From the IMG/VR virus record IMGVR_UViG_3300024496_000011: a DNA stretch of 64,000 bases; one strand, given 5' to 3'. Position numbers and translations under genes: made by a program. Shown in pieces: positions 33,075 through 63,490 of the stretch. The DNA comes from a virus. The first letter of the stretch is position 1, and every line of letters starts with the position of its first letter. A model generated the notes under the pieces. That model had not been told where the DNA came from and did not search any database. It was given only the letters and a program-made list of their open reading frames with translations.

Positions 33075-33145
33075 AGCCTCTAGACAGAATTGAACTGTCG
33101 TCTCCGCTTTACAAGAGCGGTGCATCACCACAATGCTTTAGAGGC
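33075..33145 (-). tRNA. trnT: tRNA-Thr(UGU)
   Basis: Acceptor GCCTCTA/TAGAGGC; anticodon arm CCGCT-CTTGTAA-AGCGG; T arm GACAG-TTCAATT-CTGTC; no encoded CCA. Confidence 0.9.
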
Positions 33146-33458: not shown

Positions 33459-33542
33459 TAGGAGCGGGGGGAATCGAACCCCCACGGTCATACGACCAGC
33501 AGATTTTAAGTCTGATACGGCTACCAGTTACGTCACGCTCCC
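33459..33542 (-). tRNA. trnL: tRNA-Leu(UAA)
   Basis: GGGAGCG/CGCTCCT acceptor; anticodon loop CTTAAAA; long variable arm GGTCGTATGACC; T arm GGGGG-TTCGATT-CCCCC; no intron. Confidence 0.92.
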
Positions 33543-56837: not shown

Positions 56838-56866
56838 ATTATACACAAAAAAAAGAGGGGAGTCAA
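56838..56866 (-). promoter_or_regulatory. sigma70-type promoter overlapping a terminator
   Basis: TTGACT (56866-56861), 17 nt, TATAAT (56843-56838). Confidence 0.8.
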
Positions 56867-56878
56867 GTCCCCTCTTAA
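56847..56878 (-). terminator. Rho-independent terminator ending the riboswitch/DUF4278 transcript
   Basis: AAGAGGGGA-CTTGAC-TCCCCTCTT followed by a T run. Confidence 0.85.
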
Positions 56879-56879
56879 A

Positions 56880-56978
56880 TCATTTTGCTGCTACCAGAGT
56901 AGCAAGAGATGCTTTACGACGCCTCTCTTCTTTTTGCTTTTGCTCTTTAATGAGTTGAAGTGCATTAAGTTTTTTCAT
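56880..56978 (-). CDS. Small basic peptide (32 aa, MKKLNALQLIKEQKQKEERRRKASLATLVAAK)
   Basis: Read manually; ATGA-coupled to the DUF4278-like ORF; GGAGAGG upstream. Confidence 0.6.
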   Translation of the reverse strand: MKKLNALQLIKEQKQKEERRRKASLATLVAAK

Positions 56979-57127
56979 TTTGACCTCTCCATGGAAAGTT
57001 TATTTCCATTTTCATCAACATAAAACATGGTTCCACGATAGATTTCTACTCGCGGTTCTTGTTTAAATGATTGATTTGGGCGGTTAGCAGTATCATATTC
57101 GATACCACGATATACTACTTTTGACAT
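56975..57127 (-). CDS. DUF4278-like small protein (50 aa), family of the glutamine synthetase inactivating factor IF17 (GifB)
   Basis: Read manually: MSKVVYRGIEYDTANRPNQSFKQEPRVEIYRGTMFYVDENGNKLSMERSK, with two YRG motifs; strong AAGGAG Shine-Dalgarno at 57140-57135. Confidence 0.7.
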   Translation of the reverse strand: MSKVVYRGIEYDTANRPNQSFKQEPRVEIYRGTMFYVDENGNKLSMERSK

Positions 57128-57159
57128 TAGGTTTCTCCTTAATGGTTTAGGTTAAAGAG

Positions 57160-57463
57160 CGTTCCTTCAGTCGGCGTTTGCGTTCGCTATTTGCGAATAG
57201 CGAATGAACGATCCGTTCCGCGTCGGCTTACTTCCGTCCTATTAGGTTTTAGCACTTTACTATGAAGTCCTTTCGGAGTTCTAATAACAATCGGTCCTCT
57301 ATCTTTTGAATTACTACATCGTCGTTTTTAACGATGTCCATTAGTTCCATCGCGGTGTCGCAAGAAACTGCAACCTGTTGGATGCTAGATGCTTGTGGCG
57401 CTGAAACGAAGAGGAAAGGAACCCATGCTAAAAGCAAGAGTGCTTTAGTCATAGGATGAACGG
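57160..57463 (-). ncRNA. Tandem glutamine-riboswitch-like RNA (glnA / Downstream-peptide class), with an ORF in the first P2 loop
   Basis: Unit 1: CCGUUC (57463-57458) / GAACGG (57218-57213), UCCUAU / AUAGGA, then CGGAAGUAA. Unit 2: CGUUC (57210-57206) / GAACG (57164-57160), 9-bp hairpin UUCGCUAUU-CGCA-AAUAGCGAA, then CGCAAA...UGAAG. Confidence 0.7.
57249..57452 (-). CDS. Small protein with hydrophobic N-terminus (67 aa), nested in the aptamer loop
   Basis: MTKALLLLAWVPFLFVSAPQA signal-peptide-like start; no Shine-Dalgarno sequence; AUG sits in the P2 5' strand. Confidence 0.6.
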   Translation of the reverse strand: MTKALLLLAWVPFLFVSAPQASSIQQVAVSCDTAMELMDIVKNDDVVIQKIEDRLLLELRKDFIVKC

Positions 57464-57472
57464 TAGAGGATT

Positions 57473-57525
57473 ATTATACCTCTAATCAACTTATATAGGA
57501 AGTTTTGTGTGTATTTCCTGATACA
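57473..57525 (-). promoter_or_regulatory. NtcA-type box plus -10 element
   Basis: Palindromic TGTA-TCAGGAAA-TACA (57510-57525; GTA-N8-TAC) and TATAAT at 57478-57473, about 10 nt before the aptamer 5' end. Confidence 0.6.
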
Positions 57526-63337: not shown

Positions 63338-63431
63338 TAAGTAGTCCATCAGGGAAATGGTGGAGATACTTATTTCCTAAACACCCTTAGTTTAGGATAT
63401 GAGAGACGATTTTATACTCCCTATAGGTCTC
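63338..63431 (-). ncRNA. Structured psbA 5' leader (PhotoRC-II-like)
   Basis: Three helices: GAGAC/GUCUC; CCUAAAC/GUUUAGG; UAAGUA/UACUUA enclosing CCAU-UUCCCUG-AUGG, ending 13 nt before the AUG. Confidence 0.55.
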
Positions 63432-63490
63432 GGTTTGCGGAGAGTTTAACAATGTTGCAAAACATTAAAGATTCGTAACATTTGTTTACC

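Follow-up and report, generated by a model that had tools for sequence, protein, structure and literature searches.

The window analysed here is a stretch of 64 000 nucleotides (virus record IMGVR_UViG_3300024496_000011, IMG/VR) and forms a section of an 80.9-kb contig from an uncultured T4-like cyanophage. On its minus strand, 3′ of speD, lie in this order a GTA-N8-TAC box, a hairpin carrying TATAAT, a riboswitch with a nested open reading frame (ORF) of 67 amino acids (aa), a DUF4278-like gene, an ORF of 32 aa and a terminator. The riboswitch (57462–57159), a predicted glutamine sensor, is the subject of this study. We regard its nested architecture, with a real gene inside the second helix (P2) of the aptamer, as very probable, and we favour, with less assurance, the view that the whole forms one composite glutamine sensor with two cores and not two aptamers in a row. 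Its parts are given below in the order of the RNA, the four strands of the P1 helices being named a (the first CGUUC), b (the first GGAACG), c (the second CGUUC) and d (the last GAACG); a to b delimit the first unit and c to d the second.

57458–57462, minus strand: strand a, CGUUC, the 5′ strand of the outer P1; invariant across loci, with AGUUC in three loci that lack the 3′ half.
57451–57456, minus strand: 5′ strand of the outer P2, UCCUAU, which includes the A and U of the start codon.
57249–57452, minus strand: nested 67-aa ORF of family F1, with its AUG at 57452–57450.
57422–57455, minus strand: F1-specific local 5′ hairpin of the minimum-free-energy fold, CCUAUG with CAUGGG.
57237–57242, minus strand: 3′ strand of the outer P2, AUAGGA, 6 nt past the ORF stop; unchanged in F1 loci.
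57234–57236, minus strand: outer linking strand CGG, its last G (57234) being the partner in the outer capping pair or linchpin (columns 3:84 covary).
57229–57233, minus strand: 5′ half of the E-loop, AAGUA; invariant in the 38-locus alignment A2.
57221–57228, minus strand: 5′ strand of the shared P3, AGCCGACG, pairing with 57176–57169.
57213–57219, minus strand: strand b, GGAACG (57219–57214), with G57213, the partner in the inner linchpin (columns 26:61 covary).
57206–57210, minus strand: strand c, the second CGUUC, forming the inner P1 hairpin with strand b around a G-A-U loop.
57183–57204, minus strand: inner P2 hairpin, compact in the window, of 9 bp, with eight of the nine pairs changing on both sides.
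57180–57182, minus strand: inner linking strand CGC (pair 26:61).
57169–57176, minus strand: 3′ strand of the shared P3, CGCCGACU.
57159–57168, minus strand: 3′ half of the E-loop, GAAG (57168–57165), strand d, GAACG (57164–57160), and the outer linchpin base C57159.
57135–57159, minus strand: hairpin between a Shine–Dalgarno (SD) sequence and its anti-SD partner in predicted folds, CUCUUUAA with UUAAGGAG.

An earlier reading made from the letters alone (the sequence-only reading) had located the element, placed the A and U of the start codon within UCCUAU and set AUAGGA 6 nt past the ORF stop, all of which was confirmed on the minus strand. The UCCUAU/AUAGGA stem encloses 208 nt in the window. 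Among F1 loci the spacer preceding AUAGGA varies while AUAGGA stays constant, and the linker between strands b and c measures 2 to 4 nt among loci, consistent with a loop. As that reading had also seen, AAGUA is confined to the first unit and GAAG to the second. C57159, the outer linchpin base, doubles as the first nucleotide of CUCUUUAA, which pairs with UUAAGGAG ahead of the DUF4278 start.

No Rfam model matched at the element at gathering score. With relaxed thresholds, only 57212–57156 matched the type-I glutamine riboswitch model RF01739 (33.1 bits against a cut-off of 35), a result that counts against the class assignment, and the type-II model RF01704 gave no match in the window. On relatives, RF01739 scored compact first units at 20.4–35.6 bits and second units at ~33 bits, and RF01704 reached 24.6 and 16.8 bits against a cut-off of 33. 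The sequence-only reading had expected covariance models to miss such an element, as indeed they did, because of the long insertions; it had also proposed scoring the region with and without its 208-nt loop, and here the intact region gave the values above and compact relatives stood in for loop removal. The individual features of RF01739 are nevertheless present, namely P2 after CGUUCA followed by A-CG(G/C), the E-loop, P3 and the capping pair G57234:C57159. The nucleotides that contact glutamine (the C1:G pair, and G2:C with a G of the linking strand; PMC6698751) are found in both cores, and AAGUA corresponds to positions 23–29 of the crystallised type-I aptamer (sequence as quoted in PMC5393176). 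On these features the element is assigned as a glutamine-riboswitch aptamer.

The two ways of pairing the four P1 strands were compared on alignment A2 (38 distinct loci), the nested fold being a:d with b:c and the tandem fold a:b with c:d. In solved structures the nucleotide following GGAACG forms a pair with nucleotide 3 of the CG(G/C) strand, and the E-loop consists of AAGUA opposite GAAG, adjoining a P3 that opens with A:U (PMC6698751, PMC5393176). The outer capping pair of the nested fold (columns 3:84) was C:G in 25 loci, G:C in 13 and unpaired in none (100% paired), and the inner one (columns 26:61) was G:C in 34, C:G in three and another combination or unpaired in one (97.4% paired). 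The two capping pairs occurred in all four possible combinations, each fitting the nested fold, and in strain L123, whose ORF is identical to that of the window, 57213 and 57180 had changed together, a change pair also seen in metatranscriptome contigs. The shared P3 was 81% paired, with four of its eight pairs changed on both sides; its last pair was G:C in 14, U:A in 11, A:U in two and U:G in one, and two conserved A.C or C.A positions lie within the helix. In a permutation test of P3, 301 of 380 cells were paired against 259.7 ± 4.4 expected, and none of 5000 shuffles of the partner was as high. An E-loop of AAGUA opposite GAAG, both halves being invariant or nearly so, arises in the nested fold only, which explains why its halves are split between the units. 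With the element cut at the last GAACG, the nested fold was also that of minimum free energy, 2.3–4.2 kcal/mol better than the tandem one.

Two aptamers lying side by side were proposed by the sequence-only reading, one closed around the gene by strands a and b and a compact one standing separately 3′ of it. Rfam does align each unit on its own, with the scores given above, glnA RNAs have been described as sometimes tandem and such arrangements go by that name in the literature (PMC2864571), and in the energy model, once downstream sequence is added, strand a pairs with strand b. Against this, no more than 63% and 60.5% of cells could form the tandem capping pairs and 34–43% the local mini-P3 pairs, each unit would be short of half an E-loop, and the energy of the cut element was worse; covariation favours the first CGUUC with the last GAACG (57164–57160). 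We regard the side-by-side arrangement as improbable. That reading had also noticed that the first CGUUC can pair in two mutually exclusive ways, and of its two alternatives the nested one is the one upheld. The authors describing phage S-CREM1 reported a single RF01739 match of 99 nt and 44 bits covering both units (PMC9964418).

Some observations weigh against preferring the nested fold so clearly. The P1 strands never vary in any locus, so that a:d has no direct covariation and was chosen on the evidence of the linchpin, P3, the E-loop and energy; moreover, linchpin and P3 are close together in a single short block and may be co-inherited, so that there were fewer independent changes than the cell counts imply. 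With these points included we still judge a single two-core sensor at 57462–57159 the likelier arrangement. Its outer core is predicted to be a complete type-I aptamer, with an E-loop made of the AAGUA of the first unit and the GAAG of the second, and its inner core is predicted to be circularly permuted, lying in the P3 loop and sharing P3, with its own P1, P2 and CGC strand and the capping pair C57180:G57213.

The stem that closes around the gene was followed across the ORF-bearing relatives by matching the strand that follows CGUUCA with the one that precedes CG(G/C) and counting pairs outwards from the junction; alignment A4 (MAFFT) gaps the 5′ strand of P2, its first three pairs being in register, and later pairs were counted ungapped by script. 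Contiguous P2 pairs averaged 5.5 across outer and 6.5 across inner ORFs, falling to two or fewer when the 3′ strand was slid by 1–6 nt. Among 56 ORF-bearing units there were no mismatches in the first three pairs, pair 3 being C:G in 30, U:A in 20 and U:G in six, and complementarity was retained by stems of very different sequence. In all four ORF families and in both hairpins the AUG lies inside or touches the stem; its first two bases always belong to the stem, and many of the inner units have all three bases there. A gene inside the P2 loop, as the sequence-only reading had it, is borne out by this pairing together with the intact ORFs and their selection (below). The covariation that it looked for was found in P2 across ORF families; P2 is invariant within F1, and P1 everywhere.

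P2 is invariant within F1, the family of the window's own ORF, so that support for P2 there comes from homology with the other families. The local hairpin at 57455–57422, which 33 distinct F1 leaders retain (with A:U in 23, G:U in six and G:C in three at pair 19:31), competes for the start-codon strand and beats the outer P2 in the energy model; since it also pairs this strand, the start is predicted to be hidden in both folds. These points count against the reading as one composite sensor. Codons 10–17 of the ORF (57400–57425, minus strand) are pyrimidine-rich (GUUCC, CUCUUC) and complementary to the purine-rich core (GGAAC, GGAAG), and the energy model pairs this run with the CGGAAG region; it may represent an alternative pairing or a by-product of Leu, Phe and Pro codons.

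The nested ORFs have the marks of protein-coding genes. They were intact in all 91 cases of a first sample and in all 77 recovered by protein search, and in each of the 91 the start codon stands 9–13 nt after the beginning of CGUUCA. Clustering at E ≤ 1e-8 gives four families: F0 occupies the inner hairpin, F1 (that of the window) and F2 the outer one, and F3 is found in either. The median pairwise ratio of non-synonymous to synonymous substitution rates (dN/dS) was 0.18–0.45 across families (0.35 in F1), and third codon positions were the most variable. Every family keeps two invariant cysteines spaced by some 36 residues, though the families are less than 20% identical; in the 67-aa protein of the window a hydrophobic N-terminus is followed by a helical core holding both (C31 and C67). 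Profiles of the outer and inner families matched each other with 93% probability and with the cysteines aligned, and all nested ORF families are assigned on this basis to one superfamily of two-cysteine proteins.

That the ORF is untranslated, the 208 nt being an RNA expansion segment or the 5′ half-aptamer a dead relic beside a working 3′ unit, would agree with the absence of an SD sequence at the nested start, with the predicted base-pairing of that start and with a window leader more stable than its shuffled versions (z = -3.5). The open frames of both samples, the excess of third-position variation with dN/dS below 0.5 and the cysteines kept between such divergent families all speak against a non-coding segment, and the outer linchpin, which needs the 5′ module, is paired in 100% of loci, including the ORF-bearing ones, against a relic. 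We find this account barely credible. The nested ORF is instead taken, from its pattern of conservation, to be a real, phage-specific small-protein gene.

Homologues of F1 form at least 250 clusters at 90% identity, none of them with a name. F0, F2 and F3 match PHROGs of unknown function and F1 matches none, and neither Pfam, a sequence search of the PDB nor the ESM Atlas assigned a function to the nested protein. The AlphaFold2 model, of low confidence (pLDDT, the predicted local distance difference test, 66.8), is a helical hairpin that places the cysteines at its ends. A tblastn search with the 67-aa ORF found no match among GenBank phage isolates, and the family is known from metagenomic contigs and the window only. 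The profile of the inner-ORF family gave six weak matches in 401 cyanobacterial genomes, none credible; the best was rejected as an unrelated small helical ORF of uncertain identity without a surrounding aptamer. A leader-peptide attenuator does not fit these ORFs, which are 49–69 aa long, under purifying selection and with invariant cysteines, and no conserved run of glutamine codons was visible in their alignments.

A scan of viral contigs with a 16-nt motif from the junction between the units recovered more than 119 loci. Both units are bimodal in length, either compact or ~160–250 nt. Among 104 distinct viral loci an ORF occupied only the inner hairpin in 40, only the outer in 19, both in 11 and neither in 34, so that a small ORF was present in at least one hairpin in 70 of the 104 (about two thirds) and the inner P2 held an ORF of 49–69 aa in 51. 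Phages S-PM2 and S-CREM1 carry the equivalent element behind a similar promoter, with a compact hairpin replacing the ORF (a length difference of ~207 nt). In DSL-LC02 the first hairpin is compact and the second has a 50-codon ORF, and P-SSM2 (locus L332, NC_006883.2, ~245150–245400) likewise has a compact first hairpin and a 49-codon ORF in the inner one. The RefSeq record of P-SSM2 annotates neither the riboswitch nor the 49-aa inner ORF, which GU071092 names ‘predicted protein’. Aptamer cores were equally intact in ORF-bearing and compact loci. In a sample drawn by protein similarity, 74 of 77 full-length homologues of the window ORF were flanked by both aptamer halves, and this, together with the compact counterparts in S-PM2 and S-CREM1, argues that the arrangement is not due to chance.

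In cellular genomes the junction motif gave mostly chance matches, and among 120 matches listed one had true context. This was locus L221 (JBIPLY010000594.1, 3.8 kb, from an Acetobacteraceae metagenome-assembled genome), a small phage-like contig bearing the double riboswitch with both nested ORFs, which is almost certainly a cyanophage fragment wrongly binned.

The remaining three of the 77 homologues (L130, L131 and L135, with ORFs 93–96% identical) have lost the DUF4278 gene together with the inner core and the 3′ half of the aptamer, and they read AGUUC in place of CGUUC. They are natural deletion variants in which a terminator/promoter stem-loop stands directly 3′ of the 67-aa ORF. An ORF retained with no sensor behind it does not need the sensor, which weakens any functional link between the two and is what would be expected if the nested architecture were right and the gene merely tolerated in a permissive loop, much as endonuclease genes are in loops of group I introns, its translation and the sensing being unlinked. 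Such a passenger gene would also be in keeping with the great diversity of P2 loops in compact relatives (63 distinct hairpins among 84), with the presence of family F3 in the outer or the inner P2, as for a shuffled cassette, and with the placing of the region between promoter/terminator stem-loops typical of shuffled regions of T4-type phages. It accounts poorly for an AUG that lies 9–13 nt after the start of CGUUCA, in or touching the stem, in four families and both hairpins, and no ORF was found with a leader of its own inside the loop; as the families are homologous, the position of the start could be inherited, which weakens the first of these arguments. Nor would mere tolerance lead one to expect ORFs that run through the aptamer. 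Those of F2 continue through the P2 stem and stop at the UAA of AAGUAA, and those of F0 through the stem, the CGC strand and P3, stopping at the UGA or UAA that opens the GAAG half of the E-loop, so that in these two families ribosomes must cross the sensor. We consider the passenger explanation unlikely, though with a real share of the probability.

The features flanking the element, and others in the window, are as follows.

57511–57524, minus strand: NtcA-box-like GTA-N8-TAC, identified by sequence just upstream of the promoter region.
57465–57483, minus strand: small hairpin, identified by sequence, with TATAAT (57478–57473) in its loop.
56975–57127, minus strand: DUF4278/IF17-like gene of 50 aa (PF14105 and phrog_5049 matches).
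56880–56978, minus strand: very basic 32-aa ORF, the last in the small operon, overlapping the stop of the DUF4278 gene (ATGA), with a weak phrog_13986 match.
56853–56876, minus strand: intrinsic terminator, identified by sequence, whose loop holds the -35 element of the next promoter.
63362–63457, minus strand: PhotoRC-II RNA (78.4 bits).
33075–33145 and 33459–33542: two transfer RNA (tRNA) genes.

Besides the PhotoRC-II RNA, tRNAs and speD, the contig encodes thyX. Of 144 distinct sequences upstream of related elements, 121 contain GTA-N8-TAC, usually 58–62 nt ahead of CGUUCA. In the window this NtcA-type box lies ~8 nt upstream of the -35 position, with its centre near -51, a position that agrees with neither of two known placements, -41.5 for classical activation and an overlap with the promoter in the repressed gif genes. 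The TATAAT at 57478–57473 is a probable -10 element, in which case the RNA would start a few nucleotides before CGUUC; relatives have TTGACT-17-TATAAT ~7 nt before CGUUCA. The arms of the TATAAT hairpin differ among phages yet stay complementary (GGUC/GACC, GGGG/CCC), as in the window and in loci L001, L005, L010 and L011. One RNA-library contig terminates in adapter sequence at 57473, within the loop of this hairpin. Metatranscriptome runs contain the stretch as assembled contigs, which are no reliable guide to transcription, strand or ends.

The sequence-only reading had placed the element upstream of a DUF4278 gene, and this identification holds in good part, the 50-aa protein matching phrog_5049 (E 6.5e-8) and, under the cut-off of 25.3 bits, Pfam PF14105 (E 5e-4, 20.8 bits). 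A DUF4278-like ORF was present at the equivalent position in 127 of 140 distinct related loci. Because the upstream box and the downstream DUF4278-like ORF are both widely kept, the cassette has the look of the host's gifB control unit in a phage version whose sensor carries additional genes within its fold. The terminator stem-loop (56838–56876, minus strand) has TTGACT in its loop and TATAAT 17 nt further on, and is reminiscent of the cassettes of promoter and stem-loop known from gene shuffling among T4-type phages.

In Synechocystis, binding of glutamine to a type-I switch turns on synthesis of IF17, and C68 of the gifB leader and its neighbours have been proposed to mask the ribosome site (PMC6212724). 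By analogy, glutamine would close the outer core across ~300 nt and draw C57159 into the aptamer, out of the anti-SD hairpin, and this closure would free the ribosome site and switch on translation of the DUF4278 (IF17-like) gene. The closed sensor would at the same time hide the nested start codon, as its AUG lies in a P2 strand. Conversely, a ribosome on the nested ORF would prevent closure, its footprint at the stop reaching the 3′ strand of P2 and the CGG strand, so that on any one mRNA the nested protein and the DUF4278 peptide would be made in opposition. Competition between folding of the aptamer and translation of the nested ORF would follow from this anatomy; whether it amounts to a functional, reciprocal coupling we judge to be nearly evenly balanced, leaning slightly to the negative. 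More tentative still, and on the whole rather doubtful, is a two-output translational toggle in which high glutamine would hide the nested start and turn the IF17-like peptide on and low glutamine would allow the nested ORF to be translated with the peptide off, the second core sharpening or gating the response.

Riboswitch aptamers are usually viewed as compact, non-coding and placed ahead of genes. The aptamer of the window is predicted to fold around a conserved protein gene and to have a second binding core built into its helix; in the literature searched, whose coverage left out Ames and Breaker (2011) and Ren et al. (2015), we found no description of a gene inside an aptamer or of a nested core. 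A survey of 2017 counted only two glutamine aptamers in cyanophage genomes (PMC5473149) and the S-CREM1 element was annotated as a plain glnA riboswitch (PMC9964418), against more than 119 viral contigs recovered here with one motif, which suggests that phages use this sensor far more than surveys imply. The element occurs in the laboratory phages P-SSM2, S-PM2 and DSL-LC02, and its combination of an NtcA-type box, putative glutamine sensing and an IF17-like peptide bears on how cyanophages may read the nitrogen status of their host. The nested ORFs define a widespread, phage-only family of small two-cysteine proteins. If the coupling is real, ribosome traffic through an aptamer would be a regulatory input outside current riboswitch models, and if the toggle is, one ligand-binding RNA would control two genes in opposite senses via translation inside the aptamer.

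The closest known relatives are the type-I switches (RF01739), for which the Synechocystis gifB (IF17) leader (PMC6212724) and a crystallised 61-nt aptamer (PMC5393176) serve as references. The element shares with them the CGUUC and GAACG strands of a predicted P1, P2 after CGUUCA, the CGG strand, the AAGUA/GAAG E-loop, a P3 opening with A:U, a G:C capping pair that involves the nucleotide 3′ of P1, the leading of that nucleotide into the anti-SD sequence and a DUF4278-like gene downstream. It differs in that its P2 encloses a 208-nt gene, its P3 loop holds a second core and its length is ~300 nt against ~60. The inner core has no E-loop and resembles type-II switches (RF01704; PMC6698751) in its CGUUC, its CGC strand and its GGAACG followed by G, and in type-II RNAs, too, an ORF start abuts the aptamer. 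Type-II RNAs, however, are pseudoknots in which an enclosing 3′ helix presents GGAACG in its loop, whereas the window has no enclosing helix and its GGAACG stands 5′ of its CGUUC partner in a simple hairpin, a circular permutation. With tandem riboswitches, such as those for glycine and tandem glnA RNAs (Weinberg 2010, PMC2864571), the element has in common two binding cores in one leader ahead of one gene. Unlike in these, one core lies inside a helix of the other and shares that helix, and each unit alone is without one half of the E-loop. In group I introns, endonuclease ORFs sit in peripheral loops, so that an RNA helix closes around a gene, and the ORFs move between loops. The window RNA differs from these introns in being a predicted metabolite sensor of an mRNA leader, in having the ORF start within a helix strand and in encoding no nuclease. 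Finally, the B12 switches of Mycobacterium tuberculosis are reported (bioRxiv 10.1101/2022.06.01.494293) to be a further case of a small translated ORF in a riboswitch leader, its translation interacting with the outcome; there the upstream ORF is placed in the expression platform, after the aptamer, whereas the ORF of the window lies inside the aptamer and, in some families, runs through its core.

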